Positions 6,855 through 40,968 of a stretch of DNA of 45,632 nt are shown here, piece by piece; positions within the stretch are counted from its first letter, which is position 1, and the number at the start of each line of letters is the position of its first letter. The DNA comes from Candidatus Cloacimonadota bacterium (lineage in GTDB: Bacteria; Cloacimonadota; Cloacimonadia; Cloacimonadales; TCS61), in NCBI GenBank assembly GCA_027064945.1, contig JAMOPB010000237.1, forward strand, positions 1 through 45,632. The letters run 5' to 3'. The notes below the pieces were generated by a model. That model saw nothing but the letters and a program-made list of their open reading frames with translations, had not been told where the DNA came from and did not search any database. The position numbers and the translations under genes are program-made.

Positions 6855-6863
6855 GCTTAGTCC

Positions 6864-8045: not shown

Positions 8046-8073
8046 CGATTTTCCTTTATAAAAGTTATTTGAA

Positions 8074-8102
8074 ATTATATCAAGTTTTTGGGTTTAGATC
8101 AA
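8074..8102 (-). promoter_or_regulatory. sigma70/sigmaA-type promoter with extended -10 for 6864-8045
   Basis: The minus strand reads TTGATC-17 nt-TATAAT with TG one base upstream of the -10 (TGATATAAT). It lies about 28 nt upstream of ATG 8045, leaving room for the AAAGGA SD. Confidence 0.55.
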
Positions 8103-8182
8103 GATATATCTATAATACCGTCCCAGTATGATTCATAGTTGTATGATATTAAAGATATCAGTTTTCTTGTCCATGAATATTT

Positions 8183-8221
8183 GCGAAAAAGCAAGAAAGC
8201 AGAGGTCTGAACTAGACCTCT
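8183..8221 (-). terminator. weak terminator after the portal gene
   Basis: Stem agaggtct (8201-8208)/agacctct (8214-8221). Only a moderately U-rich tail. Confidence 0.4.
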
Positions 8222-8248
8222 ACTGTTTATCAAAGTTATTTTTGATTT

Positions 8249-10507
8249 TTAATACCCCATTCCGTTTCCTTGTTCTTGAGGCATCATTGCTTGTTGTACT
8301 TGTTGTTGTATAGCTTGACTAGCTTGTAATTTTTCTTGATATTTATCACCTGCTTGTTTTACTGCATCCCAATCAATTATCTTAATAAAGCGTTTTAAAA
8401 TCCATACAGGATCAGTTGGCAAGTTAACAGAATTTAGTAAATTAATAATATTAGTTGCGCTTGATAATGTTGATTCTAAATGTTGTAATACGAGGACAAG
8501 CGGTGGGTTAAGTTTTATGTCTATATATCTTGAAAGCGTTGTAAATTCTGGCTCACGACCATTTAAAATGTATAACTGTTTAGTTACCGCGTTAACTAGT
8601 TCTTCGAGTGATTCATTAATAAATGTTTGAAATGTATCAATTTTTGTAGCAAAAATAATATTGACGTTTACTATCTGTTCTCTTAAATCATATGTGTCAG
8701 TTATACCGAGCATAGGTGACGGTATACCAGAAGCTGCGATTAAATCAGCTTTTAATGTGTCCAATTCATTCATTGGTAATGATCTGTCATGCATAGGCAT
8801 AATTTCTAAATCAACAAAACGTTTTCCGTCTTGCGAAATTGTTACAAAATCTTTATAGTCAGAAACCATTTGGCTGACATCTTTAAGTTTCATAATATCT
8901 TCAAAACTGATAGTTTGGTTTCTTAGCTCGCGTTTAAATTTTTCTATCAATTCGGCATGATTTTTGTGAGAACCTGCTTCGATTGTCCATTTACGAACAA
9001 TTGATGCACGATTCATTCTTGAAATAATGCTTGAAAGTAAGCCGATTAAATAAAGACGTGCCGGAAACAACACAGTATCGAAAATCGATGTTCCATATGG
9101 TGCATATTTATCGATCGGATTGGTAAAATTAACCATTTCATCAGCTGGCACATAGCGAATAGTTATTTTTGCGTAGTTTTCGTATAAATCATATAATAAT
9201 GATTTCAATGCATGGATTGTGTTTTCATCACTAATTAAATTGATTAATTCGTTTATTTTTGTAATTTTATGTTTATTTTTAATTTTTTTAAATACATTTT
9301 TTAACAATTCATCTAATTGATTTCCAGTTTCTGCATTTTTGTCTTCAAAATTCGAACCTGATTTACCAAAAGATTTTTGTATTGTGTCTACAAAATTATA
9401 CTTTTCAGTATTAGCTGATCCGTTTGAAGTTTTCTTGTCTGTCCCTTCAATAACTAAATAACCATATTTATTACCATTTTTTTCAAGTATGATAACATTT
9501 TCAGGTGTAACATATTTTAAGTTGATAAATTTGATTTTTGTTAAATCAAGAGATCTAATTCCTTCAATCATCTGATTTACTGAAATATTATCATTTATTT
9601 CTTCAAATAAAATTTGTGATTCAAAACTAAGATCACCTGATTTTTCCTCCATTAGCAAATTTATCTGTCTGTCGAAATCAAGTTCTGTTTTACTAATTGC
9701 TGTATTCAGTTCTTCCATTATAGATTCATAATATATATTTGAAAGGTCAAATTCCACATTAAGGCCGAGTTTATGTGAATTATAATTGATTTTAATATCT
9801 TCGAGTTTAGAATATTGTTCTGTCAATATTGCTAATGATCCTTTTTTATTTTCTATATCAGCAAACTTGTTTAAATTTATTACTTCAACAAAAAAGTTAC
9901 CTAGCACCAGTTGTTTAGGAAGTATATCATTTTTCAAACGTTTTTGAATATCAAAATAAGCAAAAATCATTTTTACAAGTTTTAACAATACTTGTTTGTC
10001 TGTATCAGCAACTGACTTATCTTGTTCAAGCATTTCGCTATATAAAATATCAATGAATTGTTTTGTATAAGGATTTTTAATCAAAATATTATCAAGATAT
10101 ACTTGTATCATTCTAGTTGCTATATATAATTCATATGGTAATTGAGAATATTGTTTATAGCGTTCTAGTCTTTCTTTTGGAATTGAAAGATTTTCAAACT
10201 GTGTTAAAATAGATTCATCGAGACCTTGTGCTCTCTCTTTAACATCTTCTTGTAAAGATTTAGATTCTTTTTTATCTTTATATACACCAGTTAAAGAACG
10301 TAAATTTATACTTTGTATATTATTTAAAAGCGTGTCGTCTTGAGTATTCATTTTTGTTAATAAATCCTCAAAGGCAGCGTCCAGAGTTTTATCTAGAATC
10401 CCGAGCTTTTTTACAGGATCCAATACATCGCCGCTGTTTTCTTGTTCTATGTTTTCTGTTTGATTTTGATTTTCTGGAATTCCATAGCTATCATCTGTAT
10501 AAGCCAT
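8249..10507 (-). CDS. portal protein (T4 gp20-like pattern)
   Basis: 752-aa ORF. PYGTSIFDTVLFPARLYLIGLLSSIISRMNRASIVRKWTIEAG matches the portal core pattern (YG.S.....R.....L......R..RA..R......G) recalled from gp20-type portals. It has a Q-rich C-terminal tail, and size and context fit. Confidence 0.65.
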   Translation of the reverse strand: MAYTDDSYGIPENQNQTENIEQENSGDVLDPVKKLGILDKTLDAAFEDLLTKMNTQDDTLLNNIQSINLRSLTGVYKDKKESKSLQEDVKERAQGLDESILTQFENLSIPKERLERYKQYSQLPYELYIATRMIQVYLDNILIKNPYTKQFIDILYSEMLEQDKSVADTDKQVLLKLVKMIFAYFDIQKRLKNDILPKQLVLGNFFVEVINLNKFADIENKKGSLAILTEQYSKLEDIKINYNSHKLGLNVEFDLSNIYYESIMEELNTAISKTELDFDRQINLLMEEKSGDLSFESQILFEEINDNISVNQMIEGIRSLDLTKIKFINLKYVTPENVIILEKNGNKYGYLVIEGTDKKTSNGSANTEKYNFVDTIQKSFGKSGSNFEDKNAETGNQLDELLKNVFKKIKNKHKITKINELINLISDENTIHALKSLLYDLYENYAKITIRYVPADEMVNFTNPIDKYAPYGTSIFDTVLFPARLYLIGLLSSIISRMNRASIVRKWTIEAGSHKNHAELIEKFKRELRNQTISFEDIMKLKDVSQMVSDYKDFVTISQDGKRFVDLEIMPMHDRSLPMNELDTLKADLIAASGIPSPMLGITDTYDLREQIVNVNIIFATKIDTFQTFINESLEELVNAVTKQLYILNGREPEFTTLSRYIDIKLNPPLVLVLQHLESTLSSATNIINLLNSVNLPTDPVWILKRFIKIIDWDAVKQAGDKYQEKLQASQAIQQQVQQAMMPQEQGNGMGY

Positions 10508-11019
10508 TAGCTACCCTTTTCTATTGTTTTAAGTATCTGATTTGCATTAAAAATATTTTTTGAATTTTTTATTTCATACGCGTTTATTTTATTATGAAAA
10601 TACTCTTTTAAATAAATATCCAGAGCGCGGCGATCAGAAAAATAGTTATTCATAAGAGATTTATATATTTGAGGATTTATACACGCCTTTACATCCGTTT
10701 CAAAATTTTCAAAGGTTTTAGACACTAGTGCTTTAGTTACCCCATCAGAACCTTGTGTTAAATACACAGGTAAAATATTTTTTTCAAACCAGTATATAAA
10801 TTTTAATTCACAAGTGTTAATAAATAAAGTAAATGCTTTTTCAAAGCTCATACCGGTATGATCTGTTTTAGAATTTAATTTCTTCAAATTGTTCTTCAGT
10901 TTGTTGTTTGTTATCTTCAACTGATAATTCTGTTTTATTAATATCAATATTACTGCTATCGCTGTTATCAGTGTTGCGTTTATCGGTTGCGCAATCCAAT
11001 ACATGATTTGATCCATCAT
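10507..11019 (-). CDS. N-terminally membrane-anchored hypothetical protein (170 aa)
   Basis: AAAGGAG lies 6 nt upstream of ATGATG at 11019. Hydrophobic helix LITAIAVILILI near the N-terminus. Its stop overlaps the portal ATG (TAATG). Confidence 0.5.
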   Translation of the reverse strand: MMDQIMYWIAQPINATLITAIAVILILIKQNYQLKITNNKLKNNLKKLNSKTDHTGMSFEKAFTLFINTCELKFIYWFEKNILPVYLTQGSDGVTKALVSKTFENFETDVKACINPQIYKSLMNNYFSDRRALDIYLKEYFHNKINAYEIKNSKNIFNANQILKTIEKGS

Positions 11020-16340: not shown

Positions 16341-16405
16341 ATAACAACCTTTATTAGTTGATTTGTAGCTATTGCTTTGGGTTTAAATGAAGTACACAAA
16401 ATTTT

Positions 16406-16917
16406 AAAATAACAACCTTTCTAATAGCTTGTTGCAGTTGACTGTACCTAGATGCAGAAAAACTTTTTTAGTCTGCGCGAACCGGTCTGGACGGTTCACT
16501 GCGAATTGTTTTCTAGTTAATAGAAAATAGTAACCTTTCTAATATTATGTTACAGTTGGCAGAACCTAGATGCAGAAAAACTTTTTTAGTCTGCGCAAAC
16601 CGGTTTGATCCCTAGAAACTTTTTTCTAGTAAATAGAAAATAGTAACCTTTCTAATACTATGTTACAGTTGGCAGAACCTAGATGCAGAAAAACTTTTTT
16701 CTAGAGATCATCTCGGTCTGATCTCATTGTTGCGATGAAGTCGCAACAATGAGACGGCCTGTTAGATAACTTCCTTTTAGAAGTTATCTAACCAGTCTGA
16801 TCCCTAGAAACTTTTTTCTAGTTAATAGAAAATAGTAACCTTTCTAATGTTATGTTACAGTTGGCAGAACCTAGATGCAAAAAAACTTTTTTAGTTCGCG
16901 CGAACCGGTCTGGACGG
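16406..16917 (-). repeat. tandem array L: 4 copies of a ~113-118-bp unit (one expanded to 192 bp), reverse complement of array R
   Basis: Core aacctttctaat-NNNN-tgttacagttggcagaacctagatgcagaaaaactttttt begins at 16414, 16532, 16645 and 16837. A degenerate partial copy at 16341-16362 abuts the ATG of 12201-16340. Confidence 0.95.
16722..16792. repeat. double-hairpin module (copy in array L)
   Basis: tctcattgttgcga-tgaag-tcgcaacaatgaga (14-bp stem) followed by gttagataacttcc-tttt-agaagttatctaac (13/14 bp). Confidence 0.9.
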
Positions 16918-16988
16918 TAAAACTTTTTTAATTAATAAATATATTTAATTTTCTTAACAAACCTATAGACTATAAAACAGGAGCGCAC

Positions 16989-18773
16989 ATGCAACTAGAT
17001 AATCTAAGTTATGAAGTGCAGGAATATATGAAATGCAAATATAATCCGTTGTACTATATCGAAAATTATGTTAAGATTCCTACACAAGGTGGGCCAGTTC
17101 TGATATCAGAGGCTGGTCTCTGGAAAAAAACAAACAAATATAGACTTGCTATCAAATCTGCTTGGAAATTCAGAAAAGTAATTTTATTGTTTCCTAGACA
17201 GACTGGTAAAACAACGTTGAATGACGCAATTTTATCTCACACTTTGAATTTTTACGAAGGTATCCAAGCGGGGTTCGTATCGATTGATAAAAATAGAGTT
17301 ATGGATTTTATTAGACGATTACAATTTATTTACGACCATTTACCTGTGTTTTTAAAAACACCGCAAAAACGCTCGCTGTCAGATAGAGTAACGTATTTTA
17401 AATTATTAAACGGTTCTCAATTACACACAAGCGGAGTTTCTGGCAACGTTTCAGAATCAGAAGTATTCAGGGGTCTATCTTTAAGTAACTTGATAATAGA
17501 TGAGGCTGCATTTTTAAATATGAATGATTTGTTAACATCTGTTGGTCCAGCATATTCGAAAGCAAGTACAGAAGCAATCAAAGCAGGTAAACCAAGTGCA
17601 TTAATATTAACAACTACACCAAACGGCATTAATGATGGCGGTTTTTATAAAATTATGAGCAATGCAACTTCGATAGAAGAGTTGATAGTAGATCCAAAAG
17701 ATCCACTTTGTGATAAATTAAAATCTGACGAAGAATGTTTCGAAATCTTGAACCAAGAAGGACGTAACGGATATGTACTAGTAAAATTGAATTGGTGGGA
17801 AGTGTTTGATGATCAATGGTATAATCAACAGAAGCAATTATTAAACTTTGATAAAAGAAGAATTGCTCAAGAGATCGATCTTGTATTTTTAGGAAGCAGC
17901 ACATCGGTATTATCAGATGATGTTATTGCAAGAATGAAACCTGCTACACAATATACTGAAAAACAATTATTTAATAATATTAAAATTCATTTTTTCAATG
18001 ATCTTGATCCTGAACATGTGTATTTAATTGGAGTCGACGTAGCTGCATCCAGTGCAGATAGTCAAGCTGCCGATTATAGCGCGCTAGTTGTCTGGGATGC
18101 GACGTTAAATAGACAAGTTGCTGAATTAAAAGTACGAGAACCTGTGTTAAAAAATTATGGGTATGCGATAATTGAATTGATTAAATTTTTAATTAAAATT
18201 GTTAATATACCAGAATGGAATTTAAAATTGGTAATTGAAAGAAACTCGTTTGGATTAGGATTGATTGAACATTTACTATATGATCCAGACTGGGGTGACC
18301 TGATGGCTAGGATCTTGTATAAAAGTAAATTAAGAAATGATTTTGTATACGGGGTACAAGTAACCGCTGCTAATAGACCGCTTATTATTAACGCATTATT
18401 GCAGCTAGTAAACGAGAAGCCAGAATCTATTGTAGGCCCAGAATTAATTAAAGAATTACAAGTTTTAGAACAGAAAAGTAATGGAAGAATCGAAGCAGCA
18501 CGCGGTTTTCATGACGACGTTGTATTCGCCGCTTCACATGCAGTTTATGCTAGAAAAGATTTGATTAAAAGAGGAGAACTCGAAGGAAACCCTGATGAAA
18601 ATTATGGTCCAAGAGTATCACTTGAGCAAATTTTAACAGTTGTTAAAACAGATGATAGTGAGGATGAGCAAGCTGAATTACAAGTAATTGAACATCGCAG
18701 TAATAATTTGGAAGCTGAAAAGAGGGATAGGCAGTTAGAAGTTGAAAAAGCAATATTAAGTATATTAAATTAA
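16989..18773 (+). CDS. terL: terminase large subunit
   Basis: Walker A LFPRQTGKTT, Walker B LIIDEAAF, RNaseH-like nuclease motifs GVDVAASSADSQAADYSALVVWD and GFHDDVVFA. 594 aa. AGGAG SD 6 nt before the ATG. Confidence 0.9.
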   Translation: MQLDNLSYEVQEYMKCKYNPLYYIENYVKIPTQGGPVLISEAGLWKKTNKYRLAIKSAWKFRKVILLFPRQTGKTTLNDAILSHTLNFYEGIQAGFVSIDKNRVMDFIRRLQFIYDHLPVFLKTPQKRSLSDRVTYFKLLNGSQLHTSGVSGNVSESEVFRGLSLSNLIIDEAAFLNMNDLLTSVGPAYSKASTEAIKAGKPSALILTTTPNGINDGGFYKIMSNATSIEELIVDPKDPLCDKLKSDEECFEILNQEGRNGYVLVKLNWWEVFDDQWYNQQKQLLNFDKRRIAQEIDLVFLGSSTSVLSDDVIARMKPATQYTEKQLFNNIKIHFFNDLDPEHVYLIGVDVAASSADSQAADYSALVVWDATLNRQVAELKVREPVLKNYGYAIIELIKFLIKIVNIPEWNLKLVIERNSFGLGLIEHLLYDPDWGDLMARILYKSKLRNDFVYGVQVTAANRPLIINALLQLVNEKPESIVGPELIKELQVLEQKSNGRIEAARGFHDDVVFAASHAVYARKDLIKRGELEGNPDENYGPRVSLEQILTVVKTDDSEDEQAELQVIEHRSNNLEAEKRDRQLEVEKAILSILN

Positions 18774-18841: not shown

Positions 18842-19456
18842 TTATTCTAATCCATATGAATATGATTTTCTTATTTTTGTATCGAATGCAGGAGCTGGAG
18901 CAGGTTTAACTTCTTTAGATTGACCTGTAATTTTATCTAAAAAGTTTGCAGCTTTTATGCCACTTTCAGTAGGCTGTAGACCATATTTGGCAGTTTTTTC
19001 AACATTATTTTGGAATGTTTTAACACCTTTAGATATAATATTTTCTGGTTTTGGAACTGTTTTATCATTTAAAACTTCACCAGTATTTGTGATGTGTGTG
19101 CCGCTTGGTAAAGTTACACCTGCATTAATTTTATGACCAGGGTGTACTTTATCTGGTTTTGGAACTGTTTGTTCAGCCGGCGCTTTAACTTCGACTGTTT
19201 TGTTACCGAGATTAGTATGTTTCTGTGTTTCAGCTGCTAAATCTTTTTGTTCAGCCGGCTGTTCAACTGTTTCTTCATTTTTCTTATTGAAAAATTCTTT
19301 AGCGGTTTTTAATGCGGGATCAAGATGCCCTGTTTTATATGCATAATAAGTACCTCCTGCAAGAGCTGCTAAACCTGCTGCTGTTGCTAGTTTACCTTTA
19401 TGTTTAGAAACAAATTCTTTTGCTTTTTGTACAATAGATTCATGAATTATTTCCAT
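18842..19456 (-). CDS. YtxH-like membrane-anchored protein, paralog of 19574-19993
   Basis: KAKEFVSKHKGKLATAAGLAALAGGTYYAYKTGH aligns with KAKDFVVKNKGKLAALAGAAALAGAGAYYAHQH of the neighbouring gene. N-terminal MEIIHESI leader. Confidence 0.5.
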   Translation of the reverse strand: MEIIHESIVQKAKEFVSKHKGKLATAAGLAALAGGTYYAYKTGHLDPALKTAKEFFNKKNEETVEQPAEQKDLAAETQKHTNLGNKTVEVKAPAEQTVPKPDKVHPGHKINAGVTLPSGTHITNTGEVLNDKTVPKPENIISKGVKTFQNNVEKTAKYGLQPTESGIKAANFLDKITGQSKEVKPAPAPAFDTKIRKSYSYGLE

Positions 19457-19520
19457 TATTAAATCCTTTTTGTAATTTTATACAGTTATTTGGGCATAGA
19501 TTTCTAAATGCGCAGTTGCT

Positions 19521-19560
19521 AAAAAAACAATAACGAGATTCGCAGCTGCGAATCTCGTTA
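19521..19560 (-). terminator. intrinsic terminator after 19574-19993
   Basis: Perfect 30-nt palindrome taacgagattcgcag/ctgcgaatctcgtta (19531-19560), preceded on plus by aaaaaaacaa. Confidence 0.75.
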
Positions 19561-19573
19561 AATGATAATCAGA

Positions 19574-19993
19574 TTATTTTGTTTCGTTTCCTGAGAAAGT
19601 TTCTTTAACTTTTTCTGCTATATCGCCAGCTTTTTCTTTAACAGTTTCAGCTGCTTGACCAGCTTTTTCTTTAACAGTTTCAACTGCTTCGCCAGCTTTT
19701 TCTTTAGCGTTTTCTAGTGCTTCGCCAGCTTGATTTTTAAGAGCTTCTACTTGATCAGGATGTTGATGTGCATAATAAGCACCAGCACCTGCAAGAGCCG
19801 CTGCTCCAGCTAAAGCTGCTAATTTACCTTTGTTTTTTACAACAAAATCTTTAGCTTTTTTAAGTGTATCGCCAGCTGCTTCAACGATATATACATATCT
19901 TTCAGCAGTTGGAGTACCAGCTGCTTCTTCTAAAATAGTAGTTTTAGCTTGAAGTACTGCGTTTTCTACAATTACATCGAATAAATGTGCCAT
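19574..19993 (-). CDS. YtxH/LEA-like protein with 11-residue amphipathic repeats
   Basis: Ala/Gly hydrophobic helix followed by KEKAGEAVETV KEKAGQAAETV KEKAGDIAEKV, encoded by 33-bp tandem repeats at 19626-19757. Confidence 0.5.
   Translation of the reverse strand: MAHLFDVIVENAVLQAKTTILEEAAGTPTAERYVYIVEAAGDTLKKAKDFVVKNKGKLAALAGAAALAGAGAYYAHQHPDQVEALKNQAGEALENAKEKAGEAVETVKEKAGQAAETVKEKAGDIAEKVKETFSGNETK
19626..19757 (-). repeat. in-frame 33-bp tandem repeat x4 (11-residue amphipathic repeat)
   Basis: ccagctttttctttaacagtttcagctgcttga and variants at 19626, 19659, 19692 and 19725. Confidence 0.85.
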
Positions 19994-20008
19994 ATTTCTT
20001 TCCTTTAA

Positions 20009-20425
20009 TTAAAGAATTTCAAGTTTAGCTGCAATTTTAGCCGCTAGGTCTGCGCTTTCTTGCACTAAATCTTCTTCTTTAGTTTCTTCAGCTTCGCCAG
20101 CTTCAGGAGCTTCACCAGCTTCAGGAGCTTTTTCACCTTCTTCAGCTTCAACTTCTTCTGCTTTAACTACTTTGTAACCAGCAGCTTCTAGTTGTTTTTT
20201 AAGTTCTTCGAGTTCTTCTTCGCTAGGTACAAATTCATCCATAGCTTCTGTTATGATTTTTTCATAAAGTTTACTAACAGTATCAACTTCTTCTTTAAGA
20301 ATCGCGCCACTTTCTTGAATTACTCTGTGGATTGTGCTATTTAGAGCAGCTGCTGCTAAATCCATAGCTGCTGCAGCACTCGCTTCAGCGATTAAATCTT
20401 CAAAAACGATTACATTTTTTTCCAT
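20009..20425 (-). CDS. acidic Ala/Glu-rich hypothetical protein (138 aa)
   Basis: ORF with AAAGGATATTTAAT before the ATG. N-terminus MEKNVIVFEDLIAEAS. PEAGEAPEAGEA repeat. Confidence 0.5.
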   Translation of the reverse strand: MEKNVIVFEDLIAEASAAAAMDLAAAALNSTIHRVIQESGAILKEEVDTVSKLYEKIITEAMDEFVPSEEELEELKKQLEAAGYKVVKAEEVEAEEGEKAPEAGEAPEAGEAEETKEEDLVQESADLAAKIAAKLEIL

Positions 20426-26210: not shown

Positions 26211-26764
26211 TATATTTCATATCCATCTTTAAAAGTTTGTTCAAGAATTGATTTGACAAGCGCGTTGTCTGTTGCCTTAGCTGATTCCTGATCGGAAGAA
26301 CCACTACTAACAAGAGCAGTAGCCTCTTCGAATTTCTTAAGAACTTCAAGAAATTTATTTTCATCAGCCGCGGTTTCTGTAGATTTTTTCCATCTGAGAT
26401 AATTGCTGAGTTTATCATTTTGGAGTTTACTTTTTTGATTAACGTAATCCTGTATTAACTTTTCATATTTGATAATTGTATCTGTTACGATTTGCTGTAT
26501 TTCAAGTTGTTTAGAAATAGCTATCTGCAGCTGCGAACGAAGCTTATAATTTTTACTATCGGTAGCTTCAAGCTGTGAATAATTTGTATAAATAAATTTA
26601 TCTAACATTTTCTCTTTATCACGTAAATTTTTAATACGTGTTTCGAGCTCAGCTATTTTATCGTCAATTTCTTGATATATTTTATCAACTTCGTTGTCTA
26701 TTTTACTATAATCAACTACAACTTCGACCTCTTTAATTTTAGCACTCATCATGTACCTTTTCAA
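26210..26764 (-). CDS. coiled-coil hypothetical protein (184 aa)
   Basis: ORF with heptad-like K/E/Q-rich sequence. It overlaps the upstream gene by 26 nt and is followed by a strong terminator. Confidence 0.5.
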   Translation of the reverse strand: MKRYMMSAKIKEVEVVVDYSKIDNEVDKIYQEIDDKIAELETRIKNLRDKEKMLDKFIYTNYSQLEATDSKNYKLRSQLQIAISKQLEIQQIVTDTIIKYEKLIQDYVNQKSKLQNDKLSNYLRWKKSTETAADENKFLEVLKKFEEATALVSSGSSDQESAKATDNALVKSILEQTFKDGYEI

Positions 26765-28304
26765 GTTCTCTAATAGCTTTTAAAGCTATATTATCAATTT
26801 CCGCAACTGTTCTTTCCATATCAGTTTCGGGTATTTCGCCCCACTGATTGATATAATGTTCAGGATTAACAGCACGCAGCATGTCATTTTTCATTTTATT
26901 ATAGAACACCTGTGCGGTTTTTTCGTGCTCGAAAAATTTTTGTAACGCAGCAATCATGCGATCCGCATATAGAGAATCGAAATATTTTTTAATAGCTTGA
27001 TAATTTTTCTTAGATTTGTATTTACTTGAATAAGTAAATCCGTTAGCTAATTCATCTTCGCTGTTTTTTAATTGTGAACCTATTAATGTATACATATACA
27101 TATTATCGAGGATAGAATATTTCGGATTCATAAAATAAAAGAAATCAAGTTGATTCATTTCTCCGAGGTACTTAAACATTTCTAAAATATCGTGATTTGG
27201 TTTTAATTTGCGTTTATTTCTATTTTTAAATACATTTGCTAATGCTTCTGCTATCATTTGCTGCTTATTGTATGCGAAATGAGTTCTTTCGCCTTCCTCA
27301 AACATATATTGAACTGCAGCTACATAACCTATTTTAACTTTTGTAATGTCAGCAGACAATAGTGAAATTATGTTTCTATGGATAAGTGATATGTATGTAG
27401 ACATTAGTGCGCGAAGCTCTAATGGATTCCTATTTTTAATTGCTATTAATATCAAATAACGCACTATTGTGTTGAGCATTACATACATATCGCTAAGTTG
27501 CAATTCATAAATAAATTTCGAAAGACGCGAACTTTTTGCGTGATATTTTTTCATCCATGATAATGTGATTGAAATAATAGTATTTGCAAATGCTTTCATC
27601 TGCGGATGATTAGAAAGAATATTTGTGATTTCTTTGTTATATAATTCAATTGCGATTTTTTGTTTGTTATAACCTACTAACTCATCTTTATATTTTTTAA
27701 TAAATTCACGAGCAATTTTTTCTAAATTTTTAAGTAAATAATGCCACGTAATTAAAGTTACTTTATCGATACCTGCGTCGTCTACCGTTAATCCAACATG
27801 AATATCAAGATTGTTTAATACTTCTTTTTTATCGTCAGGCATATCAGGATCAGATTTGAATTCTGCCTCTACAAATTCATTAATTTTTTCTTTTACCCAG
27901 TCGACAAGATTTTGAAAAAAATCAATATCGAATTGTAGATCTTCATTTTTACCCAGTGCGCCAGAAACTATTTTATCATGGTTTTCTTCATTGTGAAATG
28001 TTTTTATTTGCTCAATAAAATGATTGTCGAAAATTTCGTCTATATTATACTTGTTCATAAATTCTTCGATAATTTCTTCAACTCGTTCTGGTGCAACAGG
28101 TATTTTACGTTCTCTTTTGTCATCAAGAGACATTTTTGCTTTAAACGCTTTTATTCTCTGTTCTTCTTTAAGTTCTTCTTCAGTAGGTTCATGTTTAGTG
28201 TCGTCTGTTTCTACTTCGACCACTTGGTCGCGTACATCATCATCTTGTATATCATCTGTTACTATACCGTTTTTCTCGATAAGATTTTCAATAATATCTG
28301 CCAT
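26739..28304 (-). CDS. hypothetical protein (521 aa)
   Basis: GAAAGGTAAAGA-ATG start. GATAGATATTA motif 52 nt upstream. N-terminus MADIIENLIE. Confidence 0.55.
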   Translation of the reverse strand: MADIIENLIEKNGIVTDDIQDDDVRDQVVEVETDDTKHEPTEEELKEEQRIKAFKAKMSLDDKRERKIPVAPERVEEIIEEFMNKYNIDEIFDNHFIEQIKTFHNEENHDKIVSGALGKNEDLQFDIDFFQNLVDWVKEKINEFVEAEFKSDPDMPDDKKEVLNNLDIHVGLTVDDAGIDKVTLITWHYLLKNLEKIAREFIKKYKDELVGYNKQKIAIELYNKEITNILSNHPQMKAFANTIISITLSWMKKYHAKSSRLSKFIYELQLSDMYVMLNTIVRYLILIAIKNRNPLELRALMSTYISLIHRNIISLLSADITKVKIGYVAAVQYMFEEGERTHFAYNKQQMIAEALANVFKNRNKRKLKPNHDILEMFKYLGEMNQLDFFYFMNPKYSILDNMYMYTLIGSQLKNSEDELANGFTYSSKYKSKKNYQAIKKYFDSLYADRMIAALQKFFEHEKTAQVFYNKMKNDMLRAVNPEHYINQWGEIPETDMERTVAEIDNIALKAIRELEKVHDEC

Positions 28305-31713: not shown

Positions 31714-32190
31714 TTATTTTTGATTAGCTATTATTGTTGGTGATCCGTACAGTTTACCTTTGATATAATTATACGCAGGTCGTGCTGCTGCATTTGCAGC
31801 TCCTGCAGCACCTGCACCGATTGCTGCACCAGCTTTAGCACCCTCACTACCACCTGCAATTGCTCCAATTGCACCACCAACTAGTGCACCAGGCACTGCA
31901 CCATGTAAAGCACGTGAAGCCACATTTTTTACAGTGTAGACATCTCTCATTGTCACATTAGGATCTTTACGCGCTAATGCTCCAATTGCGCCTTCTCTTC
32001 CGTATTCTACTCCAGCTTGAGGTTCTCCAACTTCTCTACCAACTTCTACACCTGTGTTTTTTTCGAAAAATCTCGAAACTGGCACAATAGGTGTTGTAGC
32101 AATAGATGCAAGATCGCTGCTACTTAGCGCGCCTTTGTTAATAGCTTCGCGCGCTTTTTCACTGGCTTCAAATATAATTTTTTCTCTCAT
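31714..32190 (-). CDS. glycine-zipper protein, paralog of 35735-36280
   Basis: GVEYGREGAIGALARKDPNVTMRDVYTVKNVASRA..GALVGGAIGAIAGGSEGAKAGAAIGAGAAGAA..RPAYNYIKGK aligns with the 35735-36280 product. MREKIIFEAS leader. Confidence 0.55.
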   Translation of the reverse strand: MREKIIFEASEKAREAINKGALSSSDLASIATTPIVPVSRFFEKNTGVEVGREVGEPQAGVEYGREGAIGALARKDPNVTMRDVYTVKNVASRALHGAVPGALVGGAIGAIAGGSEGAKAGAAIGAGAAGAANAAARPAYNYIKGKLYGSPTIIANQK

Positions 32191-32196
32191 ATTATG

Positions 32197-32769
32197 TCAT
32201 CCTTTTTTTGGCATCAAATAACAATAAATATCGTGATCACAAATTGCTTCAATATCTTTATCATTTTTTAATTTATTCAACATGTTTTTACCGATTTCTT
32301 CAGCATCCACAAACACAAAATAATTATCTGCTTTAATTTTATCTCTATCATCACCATATGAAGGCATAAGTTTGAAATAACTTGGCGCGTTTATTACAAA
32401 ATCTTTTATTAATTCATATGATTCTTTTTCATTAATAAATCTTGGAAATACTGTTGAAGAATATTTATCATAAAACGTGATTGCATATGGCTTATTTTTA
32501 GGAAACGGCTTACAGTTTGCGCAGTGAAAGTCTTTAGATTGCAAAACAACTGGTTCTGCGTAAGCTACTAGTTTACCGTTTTTTTCAAATGCGTATACGC
32601 CACAACAAGCATCATTTAATTCTCTTAGCACATCATTGATGTTTGCTGATTTCGGCTCATCAGATAATTCATCAAGATGTCTTGACACGTAATTTTTAAA
32701 CGATATAGATTTAGTTGCTGGTTTAATAATAAATTTTAAAGAATTTATTTGTCCCGTTGCCTCCAGCAA
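32197..32769 (-). CDS. Cys-containing hypothetical protein (190 aa, TTG start in track)
   Basis: The ORF is open from the upstream stop. The only in-frame start candidate is TTG 32769, with no clear SD. Confidence 0.4.
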   Translation of the reverse strand: MLEATGQINSLKFIIKPATKSISFKNYVSRHLDELSDEPKSANINDVLRELNDACCGVYAFEKNGKLVAYAEPVVLQSKDFHCANCKPFPKNKPYAITFYDKYSSTVFPRFINEKESYELIKDFVINAPSYFKLMPSYGDDRDKIKADNYFVFVDAEEIGKNMLNKLKNDKDIEAICDHDIYCYLMPKKG

Positions 32770-32811
32770 TAATGCTTTTGCGCGATATGTGATATATTTT
32801 TTATCCGTGTT

Positions 32812-33699
32812 TTATCCTTTATTTAATTTATTTGTTAAATATGCGTACAAACCAACACCGATTAATCCTGTTTTTGTTACAACACCATTCCAAAAAGCAT
32901 GTAATACTTGCGCAATCAATGTACCGCGATCTTCGATTGCTTGTTTTATTTTATAATTATTCGGGTTTTTTGAATATAATTCGATAAATTGCGATTGCAA
33001 TTGTGTTTTTTTGTGAAAATATGTTGTGGATAAGTGAAATACAAACGAAAACAATCTCACAATAACTAGAAACAATACAGGAAAACCGAGTGCGGCAAAC
33101 TGCATAATATATGAAAGAGCTTCAGCGCCTGCTAAAGCAGAGGTCATTAAAAAACCTTTATACTGTTTAACGGCTGCACGTTTAAAGATTTCTTCAGTGA
33201 ACGGCGCACATAAAATTGCACCAATATATAACCCCATAGGTCCGAATAACGATACGCACGTAGTCATCACAACAGTATTTAATATATAAATAAAAATAAA
33301 CATCACCGCAAGTATTAATGCATCTTTTGCTTGAATATTTTTTAATTCTTCTTTGAATTCATTGATAATAAAATCAAAAGTGAATATTTTATCCAGATCT
33401 TGATATTTGCCTTGCTCGATATTTTTAATTATTTGATCTATTTTGCGTTTATCGATTCCTTGTTTGTCTAAAAACTGTATTATTCTCTGTTGTTGAGAAT
33501 AATACATGCGTTTCACACGTTCAATATCTTTTTCAGACTGAAATGCTTTGAAAAGAGAATCATATATTTTTTCTAAAAATGCGTTAATCGGATTGCTGAG
33601 TTTAGCAAATTTTTCTGTGATATCAAAATCAGATGCACGCGATTTAACCGAAGCTGTTTTAGCAATAGCTACAGCTTCAGTTATTATCATTTCGCGCAT
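32812..33699 (-). CDS. CPBP (CAAX protease / Abi, PF02517-type) intramembrane protease candidate
   Basis: Multi-TM protein with PFTEEIFKR (EExxxR motif 1), a mid-TM His (FSFVFH, approximate FxxxH) and LHAFWNG (HxxxN motif 3) in the expected order. MREMIITEAV leader. Confidence 0.55.
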   Translation of the reverse strand: MREMIITEAVAIAKTASVKSRASDFDITEKFAKLSNPINAFLEKIYDSLFKAFQSEKDIERVKRMYYSQQQRIIQFLDKQGIDKRKIDQIIKNIEQGKYQDLDKIFTFDFIINEFKEELKNIQAKDALILAVMFIFIYILNTVVMTTCVSLFGPMGLYIGAILCAPFTEEIFKRAAVKQYKGFLMTSALAGAEALSYIMQFAALGFPVLFLVIVRLFSFVFHLSTTYFHKKTQLQSQFIELYSKNPNNYKIKQAIEDRGTLIAQVLHAFWNGVVTKTGLIGVGLYAYLTNKLNKG

Positions 33700-33701
33700 T
33701 A

Positions 33702-34214
33702 TTAACCTTTTTTAATAATTTTTCTAGGATCTGTCTTAATTGCTTCTTTAACTGCTTTAAGAAATTCTTGTTTTGCTTGATCGTTAGGGACACCATTTTT
33801 AATTAATTTAAATATCTCATATAATCTTGATATTGCAAATATTGCAGCAAGCGGTGTCATTATTGGCGCTGCAATCAATGTTACGCCGGGTACAAACCCA
33901 AGTCCGATAACAACTGCAATAACATCAATTATAAAGAAAAGTACAGCCATAGCAAATTGAGCGAAATAATCACTTTTAGACATTAGATGTTGATCACTTT
34001 TTTCAAGTAAATCTTCAACTTTTTCTCCCCAAGCAACTATTTTTTCCCACTGCTTTGTATTAATTTTACCTTGTTTATGCATTTTTTCAGCCCAATCATA
34101 AACTTCTGTGTATATATCTACAAGTTTATTATGGTTGGTCATAATTTGGTGTTCTAGATCTTGAGAAACTGATTCTTCTATTATTTGCATTGTTAAACAA
34201 CTTAATTCTGCCAT
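33702..34214 (-). CDS. membrane protein (170 aa, two TM helices)
   Basis: FAMAVLFFIIDVIAVVIGLGFVPGVTLIAAPIMTPLAAIFAI. N-terminal region contains MQIIEES. Confidence 0.5.
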   Translation of the reverse strand: MAELSCLTMQIIEESVSQDLEHQIMTNHNKLVDIYTEVYDWAEKMHKQGKINTKQWEKIVAWGEKVEDLLEKSDQHLMSKSDYFAQFAMAVLFFIIDVIAVVIGLGFVPGVTLIAAPIMTPLAAIFAISRLYEIFKLIKNGVPNDQAKQEFLKAVKEAIKTDPRKIIKKG

Positions 34215-34215
34215 A

Positions 34216-34740
34216 TTAATTTCCTTTTCTTTTATTTACTAGCGGACCGCTCCCGTCATACTGGGTACCAATTGCTTTGATGATTTCACGCTCATATTCG
34301 CGTAAATCTTTTGGATTATCAAATGTTTTTATAATAACTATCCAGTTATTTTTATATTCATCTAGGTTTTTTGGCATCAGATTATCAGGATTTCCGCTTT
34401 GCTTATTTTGTTCGATTTGTCTTTCAAGTTCTTGAAAAAATTTCTTTTTGTATTGATTTTGTGAATCATCGATATTTCGGACAAAATTGTTTATATGATG
34501 ATTCATACGGTACTGCAGGCTGTTTTCTAGTTTACCTACATATACTGGTAAGTATGCTGATTTAACAGTTTGCTGTTTACCACAACACTGAAAATTATAT
34601 TCATAATCACCACTATGGAAAGGATCTAAATACATATAAATAGCATATTTATGTTTGCGATAATCGAAACGAGCAACTCTCGGGCTAACTTTGTCATATT
34701 TAAGATTTGTGGTTTTGTAGCTGTCTGATGTTATTAGCAT
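34216..34740 (-). CDS. GIY-YIG homing endonuclease
   Basis: KYAIYMYLDP (GIY-like), PVYVGK (YIG), YRMNHH (conserved Arg/His), REYEREIIKAIG (catalytic Glu) and LVN, in I-TevI-like order. Confidence 0.7.
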   Translation of the reverse strand: MLITSDSYKTTNLKYDKVSPRVARFDYRKHKYAIYMYLDPFHSGDYEYNFQCCGKQQTVKSAYLPVYVGKLENSLQYRMNHHINNFVRNIDDSQNQYKKKFFQELERQIEQNKQSGNPDNLMPKNLDEYKNNWIVIIKTFDNPKDLREYEREIIKAIGTQYDGSGPLVNKRKGN

Positions 34741-35084
34741 TTTAACTTCTTCCTTAATTCTGTAAGCTGTTTGCTGTTTATCTTGCTGCAGATCGAATTT
34801 TCTTTTGCACGGATAAATAATTCGATAAATTGTCTAAAATCTTCGCGAGTTGCTTTTTGGCGATAACTACGTTTAAAACTTGTATGAAACATTTTATGAC
34901 ATTCATCACATAAACATATACCATTTTCCGGGTCGAAGCGTTTTTCTGGAAAATAAGTTGCGTGGTCTAAATGATGCGCGTGTCTATTTTTAATCGATCC
35001 ACAAATTTGACATACCTTATCACGTCTAATCACGGTGGCGCGCCAAATACGGTAATCGCGGGTTCGACGCCAGTTTTTGCTCAT
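34734..35084 (-). CDS. HNH homing endonuclease
   Basis: WRATVIRRDKVCQICGS..HAHHLDH....ENGICLCDECHKMFH is a classic phage HNH pattern with CxxC...CxxC and H-N-H. Confidence 0.9.
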   Translation of the reverse strand: MSKNWRRTRDYRIWRATVIRRDKVCQICGSIKNRHAHHLDHATYFPEKRFDPENGICLCDECHKMFHTSFKRSYRQKATREDFRQFIELFIRAKENSICSKINSKQLTELRKKLKC

Positions 35085-35326
35085 TTGTTTTTCTTTTTAT
35101 CAGATTTTGTGATTTTATTAGTCAGATAGATTGAACCTAGTGCTCCGCCTGCTGCTCCTAATCCTGCTAATTTAACATGAAGTGCAGGCATAGTTAAATC
35201 GCCTGCTAATGTATCAGCTAGCGCGTGACCAGCAACCGCGCCACCTGCAAGTCCCGCACCTAACATGGCTAACCTTGCTTTTGGATTTTCTTTCAATATT
35301 TTTCTTGCTTTTTCCGCAATACTCAT
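35081..35326 (-). CDS. small glycine-zipper membrane protein (81 aa)
   Basis: LAMLGAGLAGGAVAGHALA....LAGLGAAGGALGSIYL. MSIAEKARKIL leader. Lys-rich C-terminus. Confidence 0.55.
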   Translation of the reverse strand: MSIAEKARKILKENPKARLAMLGAGLAGGAVAGHALADTLAGDLTMPALHVKLAGLGAAGGALGSIYLTNKITKSDKKKNK

Positions 35327-35327
35327 T

Positions 35328-35735
35328 TTATAATCCTTTGCATTCGCGTTCTAAATCATGAATTTCTTTTTTAAATCTCTCGATAATTTGATCTAAAGAA
35401 ACTTTTTTAGCTTCGTCGTAATGTATTTTTACTTTTTGACCTTTTATTTCAGGGTTATCAATTGCATATTTGATATCCTGATCACATTTACTTAAATATT
35501 TTTTAACACTTGCTTTGAATATATCCATCGCGATTGCATAAGGAATTTTTTTACATCTGGTAGATTTTGCAGCTAGTAATTCAGCACGGCGCCAAAATAA
35601 AGCCATCAAGCTTTCAGGTACATTGTATTTTTTTGCCCAAGACTTAATAACATTAGAATTTGTTTCAAATCCACGGACTACCGGACAACGTGCTTCAAAT
35701 ATCAATTTAGCTTTTTCTGCAATTAGATCTCTCAT
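35328..35735 (-). CDS. hypothetical protein (135 aa)
   Basis: Coupled ORF. MRDLIAEKAKLIFEA leader. Confidence 0.5.
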   Translation of the reverse strand: MRDLIAEKAKLIFEARCPVVRGFETNSNVIKSWAKKYNVPESLMALFWRRAELLAAKSTRCKKIPYAIAMDIFKASVKKYLSKCDQDIKYAIDNPEIKGQKVKIHYDEAKKVSLDQIIERFKKEIHDLERECKGL

Positions 35736-36280
35736 TAGCTTACCCCGTATTTCTTTTTCATATTTTCAAGTTCAGCTTCTTTCTTGCCGCGCCAATAATT
35801 ATATCCTGGTTTGATTAAAGCACGACCAGCTGTTTTTAATAAACCAGCACCTGCCCCCAGCAGTGCACCTCCTCCAACACCAATCAACAAATTTAACCCT
35901 TCATTGCCTCTAGCATGACTAGCTAATGCTGCTCCTGTAGCTGCTCCTGCTGCAGCACCACCAACTACGTCTTTTGTTAAACCTTGTTTTGCACGCGCTA
36001 TAATATTTTTTCTCGTATAAACATCTGTCCATTTGATATTTTTATCTTTTGCAGCTAACGCCCCTACTGCACCTTCTCTTTCATATTTTTCACCAATTTG
36101 CTCGTGCCCAACTTTACGTCCAGCAAGAATTGAATTTATACGATTATACTCAGAACCATGAAACCAATCAGAACTGCGTTTGGCTGTTTCATGTTCGGCG
36201 TACTTATTTATTAAAGCACGTGCTTTTTGTTTTGCACGTTCCCTGGCTTCTTTTATACTGTCTGATGTACTACGAGCCAT
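35735..36280 (-). CDS. glycine-zipper protein, paralog of 31714-32190
   Basis: GEKYEREGAVGALAAKDKNIKWTDVYTRKNIIARA..VVGGAAAGAATGAALA..IGVGGGALLGAGAGLL..KPGYNYWRGK. Confidence 0.55.
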   Translation of the reverse strand: MARSTSDSIKEARERAKQKARALINKYAEHETAKRSSDWFHGSEYNRINSILAGRKVGHEQIGEKYEREGAVGALAAKDKNIKWTDVYTRKNIIARAKQGLTKDVVGGAAAGAATGAALASHARGNEGLNLLIGVGGGALLGAGAGLLKTAGRALIKPGYNYWRGKKEAELENMKKKYGVS

Positions 36281-39146: not shown

Positions 39147-39183
39147 AGTCTTCGTCCTTTGATCAATTGCCTTTTATTTAAAA

Positions 39184-39199
39184 TGCTAATCATTGGGGC
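39184..39199 (-). promoter_or_regulatory. GCCCCAATSATTAGCA element upstream of 38247-39146
   Basis: The minus strand reads gaaGCCCCAATGATTAGCAttttaaataaaaggcaattgatcaaaggacgaagactATG. Confidence 0.35.
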
Positions 39200-39223
39200 T
39201 TCTCAATATTTTTATATTTTTAA

Positions 39224-39235
39224 GATAGCATACTA
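39224..39235 (+). promoter_or_regulatory. degenerate GATAG-cATAcTA motif at the left edge of array R
   Basis: taagatagcatactagaaaaca. Same orientation as the array units. Two mismatches to the motif. Confidence 0.2.
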
Positions 39236-39383
39236 GAAAACAATTCACAGTGAACCGTCCAGACCGGGATGATATCTAGAAAAAAGTTTTTCTGCATCTA
39301 GGTTCTGCCAACTGTAACAAGCTATTAGAAAGGTTGTTATTTTAAAACAACAAACTGAAAAACTAGTTTGGTCGTCTAGACTA

Positions 39384-39454
39384 GTTAGATAACTTCCTTT
39401 TGGAAGTTATCTAACAGGCCATCTCATTGTTACGACTTCATCGTAACAATGAGA
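39384..39454. repeat. double-hairpin module (array R copy 1)
   Basis: gttagataacttcc-tttt-ggaagttatctaac and tctcattgttAcga-cttca-tcgTaacaatgaga, both perfect 14-bp stems. Confidence 0.9.
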
Positions 39455-39696
39455 TCAGACCGGGATGATACCTAGAAAAAAGTTTTTCTGCATCTAGGTT
39501 CTGCCAACTGTAACAAGCTATTAGAAAGGTTGTTATTTTAAAACAGTAAACTGAAAAACTAATTTGGATGATCAGACCGGGATGATACCTAGAAAAAAGT
39601 TTTTCTGCATCTAGGTTCTGCCAACTGTAACAAGCTATTAGAAAGGTTGTTATTTTAAAACTGCAAACTGAAAAACTAGTTTGGACGATCAGACTA

Positions 39697-39767
39697 GTTA
39701 GATAACTTCCAAAAGGAAGTTATCTAACAGGCCGTCTCATTGTTGCGACTTCATCGCAACAATGAGA
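39697..39767. repeat. double-hairpin module (array R copy 2)
   Basis: gttagataacttcc-aaaa-ggaagttatctaac and tctcattgttGcga-cttca-tcgCaacaatgaga. Flanked by 8-nt direct repeats gatcagac at 39687-39694 and 39766-39773. Confidence 0.9.
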
Positions 39768-40056
39768 TCAGACCGGGATGATATCTAGAAAAAAGTTTTT
39801 CTGCATCTAGGTTCTGCCAACTGTAACAAGCTATTAGAAAGGTTGTTATTTTAAAACTGCAAACTGAAAAACTAGTTTGGACGATCAGACCGGGATGATA
39901 TCTAGAAAAAAGTTTTTCTGCATCTAGGTTCTGCCAACTGTAACAAGCTATTAGAAAGGTTGATTTTTAATATCAGATAATTTGTCAAATTTAAAAAAGA
40001 ACTGGGAGAAAATAAACACCAATTTCTATATATTCTTTAATAATTAAAATAAGTTA

Positions 40057-40067
40057 GATAGATATTA
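40057..40067 (+). promoter_or_regulatory. GATAGATATTA motif, instance 2
   Basis: agatagatattataataagaaaaataaaa, about 47 nt upstream of the rod hairpin at 40114. About 30 nt are similar to instance 1, with 2 indels. Confidence 0.35.
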
Positions 40068-40113
40068 TAATAAGAAAAATAAAAAAATAAATAAAATAAA
40101 TAAAATAATTTTG

Positions 40114-40208
40114 CCTCGAAGCTGGTTACAGAGCCTAGGGGCTGGGAGAGAGGCGACCGCGCGGCGCGTACTCTCTCAGTCTCGCGGGCTGCTGAGCCAG
40201 CTTCGAGG
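40114..40208 (+). other. 95-nt GC-rich rod-like hairpin in the 5' leader of the plus-strand block (processing site, attenuator or ncRNA candidate)
   Basis: Outer stem cctcgaagctgg/ccagcttcgagg (12 bp). Inner stem ctg..gagagag (40142-40152)/ctctctcag (40171-40179). A-rich tract upstream and ttatttatttttt downstream. Confidence 0.7.
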
Positions 40209-40240
40209 GATCGTTATTTATTTTTTAAAGGAGAAAAAAA

Positions 40241-40372
40241 ATGAAAATTAAAAAACGCGATTGGAATATCGTAGCCATAGCTCGTGGCGAAATTAATGCA
40301 CGCCCAAAAGTAGTGCATTCTAAGAAAAAATATTCACGCAAATTAAAACATAAAAAGCGTGAATATTTCTAA
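40241..40372 (+). CDS. 43-aa highly basic peptide (MKIKKRDWNIVAIARGEINARPKVVHSKKKYSRKLKHKKREYF), speculative ArfA-like tail
   Basis: Not in the ORF track because it is under 60 aa. AAAGGAG 8 nt upstream of ATG 40241. The C-terminal K/R tail resembles KGKGSYxRKxKH of ArfA-type ribosome rescue factors (from memory). Internal 7-bp hairpin at 40295-40319. Confidence 0.4.
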   Translation: MKIKKRDWNIVAIARGEINARPKVVHSKKKYSRKLKHKKREYF

Positions 40373-40482
40373 TTTCTATTTTAAAATTTATCTTTTAAGA
40401 TTAATATATAGAAATTATATATTGAAGGAGACCAGTATTTTGGCTCCAAAAAACAAAAAAACAAATCAAAAAAGGAGAACAC

Positions 40483-40968
40483 ATGAACGGTTTAACTTAC
40501 AAACAATGGAATGAAAGTATCAGAAACATTTTAAATAAATATCCGAAGTTGGTAACAGAATTGAAATTACCAAATACGGTAATGCTACAGTTCAGAAAAG
40601 TTGAATCTAAAAAATTAACAATCGATACTTTTTCAAAATTTATAGAAGGGTTAGGATTAAGTTTCGAGATTGTTATCAAAGATAAAGATGGAAACACTGT
40701 AGATACAACTAAACTTGAAAACTTAGCTGCAGACAAAGTTGAAAAAACGAAAAAAGAAACCCTTGCAACCATTGCAGGTGTTTCTACTGTTTCAAAAAAA
40801 GAAGGAAATAACACGTCTGCGCATGTTACAATGCCAGATGCAGATGATGTATTACCAGCAACTGGAGAAGTTAAAATTGGAGAATCTGTGTCTCAAAGCG
40901 AGAATGATTCAGCGCTTGCTGCGTCACCAGAGGTAGAAGTAGATCTCCAAGCAATATTCGGCAACTGA
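40483..40968 (+). CDS. hypothetical protein, possible HTH-like N-terminal domain with acidic tail
   Basis: AAAAGGAGAACAC-ATG. TIDTFSKFIEGLGLSFEIVIKD resembles the end of an XRE-type HTH. Followed by a strong terminator. Confidence 0.45.
   Translation: MNGLTYKQWNESIRNILNKYPKLVTELKLPNTVMLQFRKVESKKLTIDTFSKFIEGLGLSFEIVIKDKDGNTVDTTKLENLAADKVEKTKKETLATIAGVSTVSKKEGNNTSAHVTMPDADDVLPATGEVKIGESVSQSENDSALAASPEVEVDLQAIFGN

Follow-up and report, generated by a model that had tools for sequence, protein, structure and literature searches.

The window analysed here, 45,632 nucleotides in length, is the whole of the 45.6-kb contig JAMOPB010000237.1 (C237), one of 493 in a 2.43-Mb bin assigned to Candidatus Cloacimonadota. 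The gene in question lies on its minus strand (32812-33699) and encodes a PrsW-like intramembrane protease of 295 residues; it starts with ATG, 6 nt downstream of the ribosome-binding site AAAGG. A preliminary description of this open reading frame (ORF) placed it in phage DNA and assigned it to the CPBP (CAAX/Abi) proteases, citing three strings that are all present: EEIFKR (residues 169-174), FSFVFH (217-222) and HAFWN (267-271). The location is borne out by the other genes of the window, which encode a large terminase, baseplate hub, wedge and spike-like proteins, further virion proteins and three pieces of a split multisubunit RNA polymerase (RNAP). Of the assignment, the broader part stands and the narrower does not: the protein belongs to the glutamate/histidine superfamily of intramembrane proteases and is borne by a phage, but within that superfamily it is a divergent branch of PrsW, just below the Pfam threshold, instead of a CPBP/Abi member.

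The subfamily has a common plan, a short leader followed by a helical domain of about 90 residues and a minimal five-helix catalytic core. In the window protein, whose segments are all encoded on the minus strand, a leader or propeptide (residues 1-29; 33613..33699) holds two [LI]-x-E sites, I6-T7-E8↓A9 and I27-T28-E29↓K30 (arrows mark putative cleavage points), and precedes a soluble, all-helical N-terminal domain (residues 30-122; 33334..33612). The membrane domain with its PrsW-type catalytic core (residues 123-295; 32815..33333) is delimited by AlphaFold2, the PrsW profile PF13367, hhalign and loop charges. Built from the family alignment, the AlphaFold2 model of the full protein has a mean predicted local distance difference test score (pLDDT) of 88.6 and a predicted template modelling score of 0.82, and the membrane half modelled alone reaches a pLDDT of 93.9. 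The first 30 residues are poorly predicted (pLDDT 51-56), and the N-terminal domain consists of helices between residues 27 and 120 (pLDDT 86-97). No Pfam domain covers this part, and searches of PDB sequences with the protein and with the family profile returned designed helical repeats matching the N-terminal domain and nothing else.

The C-terminal half is strongly hydrophobic and is modelled as five long helices (124-152, 155-178, 182-203, 208-242 and 248-294), with Kyte-Doolittle means of 2.4-2.6 for transmembrane (TM) helices 1 and 4. Lysine and arginine are nearly absent from loops 1-2 and 3-4 (family-wide means of 0.24 and 0.40 per loop) and abundant in loops 2-3 and 4-5 (1.84 and 4.9), which predicts that the N-terminus and the latter two loops lie on the cytoplasmic (cis) side. 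The four sequence motifs of the putative active site occupy one depth, in the cis-side half of helices 2-5; the N-terminal helical domain lies on that side too. Every motif residue falls in a predicted TM helix, and the motifs thus lie within the membrane core; motifs placed outside it would, by the preliminary description's own second criterion, have refuted the call.

The best Pfam match of the protease is PF13367 (PrsW; E=1.2e-4, 22.1 bits), in which residues 132-279 are aligned to profile positions 15-179 of 196. Searches of PHROGs and NCBIfam with the same protein gave no match. A phmmer search of 1.84 billion representatives recovered 157 clusters at E<=1e-3 (best 8.8e-23), mostly of 250-300 residues and of the same architecture, which puts the family at no fewer than 157 metagenomic clusters, clustered at 50% identity. 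PF13367 is matched by 63 of 70 relatives at E<=0.01 (best 9.3e-10), and other protease families by none of the 70. Conservation was read from two alignments, one of 70 and one of 90 homologues, whose columns average 18-19% identity: E169, K173, E193, H222, H267 and N271 are invariant in both, and P166, E170, F189, Y197 and R215 are conserved at 90% or above.

These residues define four motifs, each with a counterpart in cellular PrsW. Motif 1, E169-E170-x-x-K173 (33181..33195, minus strand, as are the others), aligns with the cellular EExxK; motif 2, (F/L)189-x-x-x-E193-x-x-x-Y197 (33109..33135), with GFAxxENxxY; motif 3, H222 (33034..33036), with the PrsW histidine; and motif 4, H267-x-x-W-N271 (32887..32901), with HxxFN. 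Reference sets for hhalign were drawn from genomes related to the bin and comprised 10 cellular PrsW proteins, each scoring 45-146 bits against PF13367, and 12 cellular CPBP proteins. The profile of the phage membrane domain aligned to cellular PrsW with 97.2% probability (E=2.9e-11) over 114 columns, with APxxEExxK, FxxxExxxY, H and HxxxN in register; to cellular CPBP it aligned with 13.4% probability over 19 columns, which include the EE motif only.

The CPBP/CAAX/Abi family (PF02517), to which the Rce1-like type II CAAX proteases belong, is the identity first proposed. It shares the superfamily, the EE motif, the TM histidine and HxxxN with the phage protein, whose EEIFKR, TM histidine and HAFWN do stand in CPBP order, and PrsW is a distant relative of both CPBP and APH-1 (PMC3482391). 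However, PF02517 finds no match in the protease at E<=1 and none in the 70 relatives at E<=0.01. The EExxxR signature does not survive alignment either: it is found in 12 of the 12 reference CPBP proteins, whereas R174 of the phage protein is variable and the conserved basic residue is the invariant K173, in the EExxK form of PrsW. The apparent EExxxR is thus a coincidence, because the non-conserved R174 happens to follow K173. The FxxxH motif of CPBP (9 of 12 references) fares no better, with S218 four residues before H222 and no conservation of F at that column, and the invariant E193 motif is an addition specific to PrsW. A hidden Markov model search with PF02517 was the test that the preliminary description had itself proposed; by its negative outcome the CPBP/Abi call is refuted, and this identity, rejected here on all of the above grounds, is left with next to no probability.

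Two observations weigh against the PrsW assignment: the PF13367 score falls 1.4 bits short of the gathering cut-off of 23.5 bits, and Foldseek searches, run with the full model against PDB and BFVD and with the TM-only model against PDB, had no match below E=0.17 and did not recover Rce1, so that structure adds no independent support and neither backs nor refutes the CPBP call. The latter result, together with the fact that activity is predicted only, would also suit a membrane scaffold or anchor that has lost catalysis and retains no more than a PrsW-like fold. Such a protein would hardly be expected to hold all six catalytic-motif residues invariant at 18-19% column identity, a pattern that points to selection on an active site, and a dead scaffold is accordingly judged very improbable. 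The gene very probably encodes an active PrsW-like protease and is an accessory gene of the phage.

The closest characterised likeness is Bacillus subtilis PrsW (YpdC), the site-1 protease of the anti-sigma factor RsiW, whose membrane helices hold these four motifs, likewise ordered EExxK, FxxxE, H and HxxxN. Most PrsW proteins are described with eight helices (PMC3482391), whereas the phage protease has five, adds a leader and the helical domain of about 90 residues, and is found in large phages only. PrsW cores are also fused to other domains in polymorphic toxins, where they are proposed to be releasing peptidases (PMC3482391). The phage protein likewise joins a PrsW core to another domain; in the toxin fusions, however, PrsW is N-terminal to the toxin, whereas here it is C-terminal to a helical domain without a recognisable toxin.

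The leader is not confined to the protease. It had been described as common to the protease and its neighbours, and this sharing is real: [LIV]xE[ASKNGE] occurs in the first 16 residues of 14 of the 36 ORFs in the window, against 3.8 ± 1.7 in random internal windows, none of which (0 of 2000) reached 14. The leader-bearing proteins include the protease (MREMIITE↓A), three glycine-zipper (Gly-zipper) proteins (MREKIIFE↓A, MSIAE↓K and DSIKE↓A), a protein starting MRDLIAE↓K and a two-TM protein (MQIIEE↓S); the pattern common to the protease and its neighbours is MRE-II-E. Across the family, 83 of the 124 full-length members have [LIVM]xE[GASE] between residues 2 and 45, where shuffled sequences give 34 ± 4.6 (maximum 51 in 500 shuffles), and the motif is concentrated at positions 10-40; I27-T28-E29 of the window protease aligns with a conserved LIEE of its closest relatives.

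The leader differs among phages yet is common to the protease and its neighbours on five contigs (the window, L003, L004, L006 and L055). On L004, KIDKLIEE is carried by both the protease and the Gly-zipper gene after it, KIDRLIEE is found on a 165-aa gene two genes before, and YLIEE and YLEE on two further genes, both with glycine-rich segments. The Gly-zipper genes flanking the L003 protease carry LMIEE, LLEE and YLNE. The leaders of L006 and L055 have the forms MS-V/I-YG-S/N and M(SN)IYGDNIF (also MS-IYG-N/D). Elsewhere in the window, [LIV]xE leaders such as MEIIHE↓S, VIVE↓N, DLIAE↓A and MADIIE↓N occur on minus-strand ORFs in 18842-20425, 26739-28304 and 6180-10507, several of them Ala/Gly-rich; these ORFs are candidate head-internal proteins.

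Phage T4 offers the model for such a signal: a 10-residue leader, common to its internal proteins, is enough to direct them into the head, and gp21 cuts it off after L/I-X-E (PMC9026906). In giant phages, prohead cleavage takes place at S/A-X-E or A-X-E (PMC9026906, PMC10052503). By analogy, the leader found here appears to behave like the T4 capsid targeting sequence. The resemblance extends to its distribution: T4 IPI, IPII, IPIII and Alt, like the phage protease and its neighbours, are unrelated neighbour genes with a short leader ending L/I-x-E, and are variable and dispensable. It does not extend to the proteins themselves, since the T4 internal proteins are small and soluble, whereas the protease is a multi-pass membrane enzyme whose leader is read from sequence.

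Two points count against reading the leader in this way. [LI]xE is a short motif in a proteome rich in I, L, E and K. In addition, the first codon of the protease, ATG in the window (33697-33699), is ATT in the 99.7%-identical L054 (90-92). Either ATT initiates in L054 or the true start is the second ATG; gene callers start the L054 protease at M4 (MIITE...), and the I-T-E site is kept either way. The MRE part of the leader is therefore not fixed, and MIITE remains. With these points included, the leader is still, on balance, probably a prohead-protease or targeting signal.

A prohead protease that is a candidate for cutting at such a signal is present in the bin. A single gp21-type enzyme is encoded on contig C279 (8.8 kb; PF03420, 44.8 bits; phrog_207, E=1e-33), next to a 511-aa protein with a weak match to Gp23, the major capsid protein, and both proteins contain ILEE↓G or ILEG sites close to the N-terminus. 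The tetranucleotide composition of C279 correlates with that of the window at r=0.978 (rank 8), which makes it likely that C279 belongs to the same phage. It lacks the intergenic repeat arrays of window 16341-16990 and 39147-40483, shared by contigs C493 (24.8 kb) and C227 (12.3 kb), which mark these two as pieces of the window phage; C279 is tied to it by composition only, and its assignment is unproven because the linking repeats are missing. A second, stronger Gp23 match lies on contig C489, whose composition is less similar to that of the window.

The protease is the middle gene of a three-gene cassette of 1975 bp (32210..34183, minus strand), which comprises the two-TM gene from codon 11 onward, the protease and a 190-aa ORF, and was delimited by blastn collinearity with L051 and L052. 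The upstream gene (33702..34214, minus) encodes 170 residues with a leader, MAELSCLTMQIIEE↓S, a helical domain and a two-TM hairpin. The downstream ORF (32197..32769, minus) starts with TTG, has no clear ribosome-binding site, contains several Cys pairs and matches no family; it is kept in L054, and in L051 and L052 it is gone together with the protease. L051 and L052 are two assemblies of a close relative (82-88% nucleotide identity) and are collinear with the window on both flanks of the cassette. In place of window 32210-34183 they hold about 300 bp of unrelated GC-rich DNA (L051 2829-3128), apparently non-coding and structure-prone, which matches nothing in Rfam and does not recur in the window. 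Of the two-TM gene, codons 1-10 persist in L051 as a remnant, which shows that the cassette was deleted or replaced in these relatives. The third assembly, L054, has the protease-containing arrangement, and only six codons differ within its protease, too few for a ratio of non-synonymous to synonymous substitution rates. Loss of the cassette marks the protease as accessory and not as an essential assembly component. An IS200/IS605 TnpA-TnpB pair lies about 1 kb upstream of the replacement segment in L051 and L052, and endonuclease genes adjoin the cassette in the window; the region is plastic.

The cassette is flanked by other leader-bearing genes, all on the minus strand. Directly downstream lies a Gly-zipper protein with the leader MREKIIFE↓A (31714..32190), whose relatives match PF13441 in precomputed annotation and which itself has a weak P22_gp7 match (E=0.013). 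Three more (35081..36280) encode an 81-aa double Gly zipper (MSIAE↓K), a 135-aa protein (MRDLIAE↓K) and a 181-aa Gly-zipper protein (DSIKE↓A). Between these and the cassette, within the cluster and adjoining the cassette, an HNH endonuclease (PF13391, E=1.2e-5; phrog_1271, E=2e-10) and a possible second homing endonuclease, a 174-aa ORF with a weak match only (phrog_314, E=0.006), occupy 34216..35084 on the minus strand.

The Gly-zipper neighbours raise the possibility that the protease is their processing or immunity partner, which matures them or shields the producer. The window Gly-zipper protein is 36% identical over 148 residues to the product of L004 2799-3260, the gene directly downstream of the L004 protease; a homologous Gly-zipper gene thus follows the protease in two phages whose proteases share only 27% identity. 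On L003, Gly-zipper genes stand on either side of the protease. In toxin systems, the role of releasing peptidase falls to PrsW domains (PMC3482391). A partner role would also parallel that of CPBP/Abi proteins, which mature bacteriocins or protect their producers. However, the Gly-zipper gene has outlived the cassette in L051 and L052, where its product is still 94% identical to that of the window; the protease is therefore not an obligate maturation or immunity partner of this protein, and is needless for its function or tolerance unless a second copy lies elsewhere. Family members on L046, L048 and L002 have no Gly-zipper neighbour. Obligate partnership is rejected on the first of these grounds, the suggestion of the preliminary description that the protease protects from the neighbouring zipper proteins is weakened, and the partner reading as a whole is improbable.

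Ejection proteins of podoviruses (P22 gp7, gp20 and gp16, T7 gp14-16, and those of N4) are carried in the virion and enter the host envelope, and P22 gp7 has a cleaved N-terminal leader. The weak P22_gp7 match of the neighbouring Gly-zipper protein recalls them, with two differences: none of them is an enzyme of classical multi-pass fold, and the window phage carries contractile-tail baseplate genes.

No deposited phage is close to the one in the window: the nearest sequences to its terminase and RNAP pieces in GenBank phages reach only about 25% identity. The protease family is absent from these and from PHROGs: tblastn of four members against 50,697 GenBank phage records gave no match, as did tblastn of both Gly-zipper paralogues against GenBank phages, and ten members found no match over the membrane domain in PHROGs. 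From IMG/VR, searches with single proteins and with alignments yielded no related loci, and a metagenome scan gave two. Where context is available it is that of large phages, the only contigs on which the family was found. One relative, on a 272.6-kb contig (Ga0256837_1000001), lies among RNAP beta' pieces, Gly-zipper proteins and the RNAP beta subunit, with ribonucleotide reductase nearby; others adjoin DNA polymerase B and helicase genes, or sugar-modification genes. On L006 the PrsW-like gene (10001-10876) directly follows a 533-aa protein (8309-9910) with lysozyme, amidase and LysM domains, and the next gene carries the same MS-I/V-YG leader as the PrsW-like gene.

Origin from the host is rejected: across 232 genomes of the bin's phylum, the family profile found the window's own copy only, with none in the other 231. 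Canonical cellular PrsW is itself nearly absent from deposited phages, with tblastn matches in two metagenomic records only. One match, at 25% identity (E=3e-4), lies in a 634,780-bp uncultured phage (LR745206.1, 90358-90849) and hints that PrsW-type proteases may occur more than once in huge phages. A cellular PrsW (PF13367, E<=1e-10) is encoded by 12 of 18 further genomes of the same family; the bin, which is 89% complete, and two genomes of its genus have none at that threshold. Should the bin reflect the host, the phage supplies a protease type missing from that genus.

What the protease does for the phage may be outlined as follows. The leader would act as a T4-type capsid-targeting and prohead-protease signal, bringing the protease to the assembling head, where a gp21-type protease would trim it after E8 and/or E29. 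The mature protease would then travel with the virion and act at the inner membrane of the next host. Its active site, in the leaflet on the side of the helical N-terminal domain, would cut host or co-delivered membrane proteins, in an accessory takeover or anti-defence role like that of the T4 internal proteins. As a whole, this picture of an active PrsW-type protease, head-targeted or leader-trimmed, that serves as a packaged accessory effector is the most likely of the readings considered, put forward tentatively, at somewhat less than even confidence. Its parts differ in strength. That the whole membrane protein is packaged and ejected, as analogy with T4 would have it, is conceivable and open to considerable doubt. 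The fullest version, in which a complete multi-pass protease is loaded by its leader, trimmed, injected with the DNA, inserted into the new host membrane and cutting membrane proteins within seconds, is unlikely.

Packaging is favoured by the T4 precedent and by the ejection-protein-like neighbours. Several considerations weigh on the other side. A strongly hydrophobic five-helix protein is normally inserted co-translationally into the membrane of the producer cell, and the hydrophobicity of TM1 and TM4 speaks for such ordinary insertion. To our knowledge, there is no precedent for a packaged multi-pass membrane enzyme. The phage is, moreover, uncultured and known from its DNA alone.

In another possible role, the protease is never packaged and resides in the inner membrane of the producer cell. 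Its leader would then either dock it at membrane-bound proheads, so that cleavage by the prohead protease would release or time it, or serve some other shared purpose. Its targets would be host membrane proteins such as anti-sigma factors or membrane-bound defence sensors, or it would contribute to superinfection exclusion or lysis timing. The Kyte-Doolittle values of TM1 and TM4 are typical of proteins inserted by the signal recognition particle and YidC, and by the charge pattern, which is N-in, the leader, helical domain and active site all fall on the cytoplasmic side, where proheads assemble. T4 and SPN3US proheads form on the inner membrane and detach upon cleavage (PMC9026906, PMC10052503), and cellular PrsW is a resident membrane site-1 protease (PMC3498285). 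By contrast, the T4 precedent for common leaders ending L/I-x-E is head packaging, and the same leader is present on Gly-zipper proteins similar to those of the ejection type. No host protein stands out as a substrate, and the bin and two genomes of its genus have no cellular PrsW match at E<=1e-10. Residence in the producer cell is a serious alternative, though a doubtful one.

PrsW proteases are known as cellular stress-signalling and toxin-releasing enzymes; the family described here, moved from CPBP/Abi to PrsW, is a distinct subfamily confined to large uncultured phages, without representatives in PHROGs, in GenBank phages (tblastn, four members) or in a viral structure library. What is new is a phage-specific, leader-tagged, minimal PrsW subfamily that had not been filed before. 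Should the leader function as it does in T4, the proteins that large phages deliver or deploy form a swappable membrane-active toolkit, an intramembrane protease among them, which would bear on how the host envelope is breached or rewired at entry and on how a very hydrophobic protein is kept packageable. If the protease is indeed packaged and injected, it would be the first virion-delivered integral membrane enzyme, within an exchangeable, leader-tagged cargo set of large phages. Read conservatively, the subfamily still opens a new way into how phages manipulate membrane proteolysis in their hosts.

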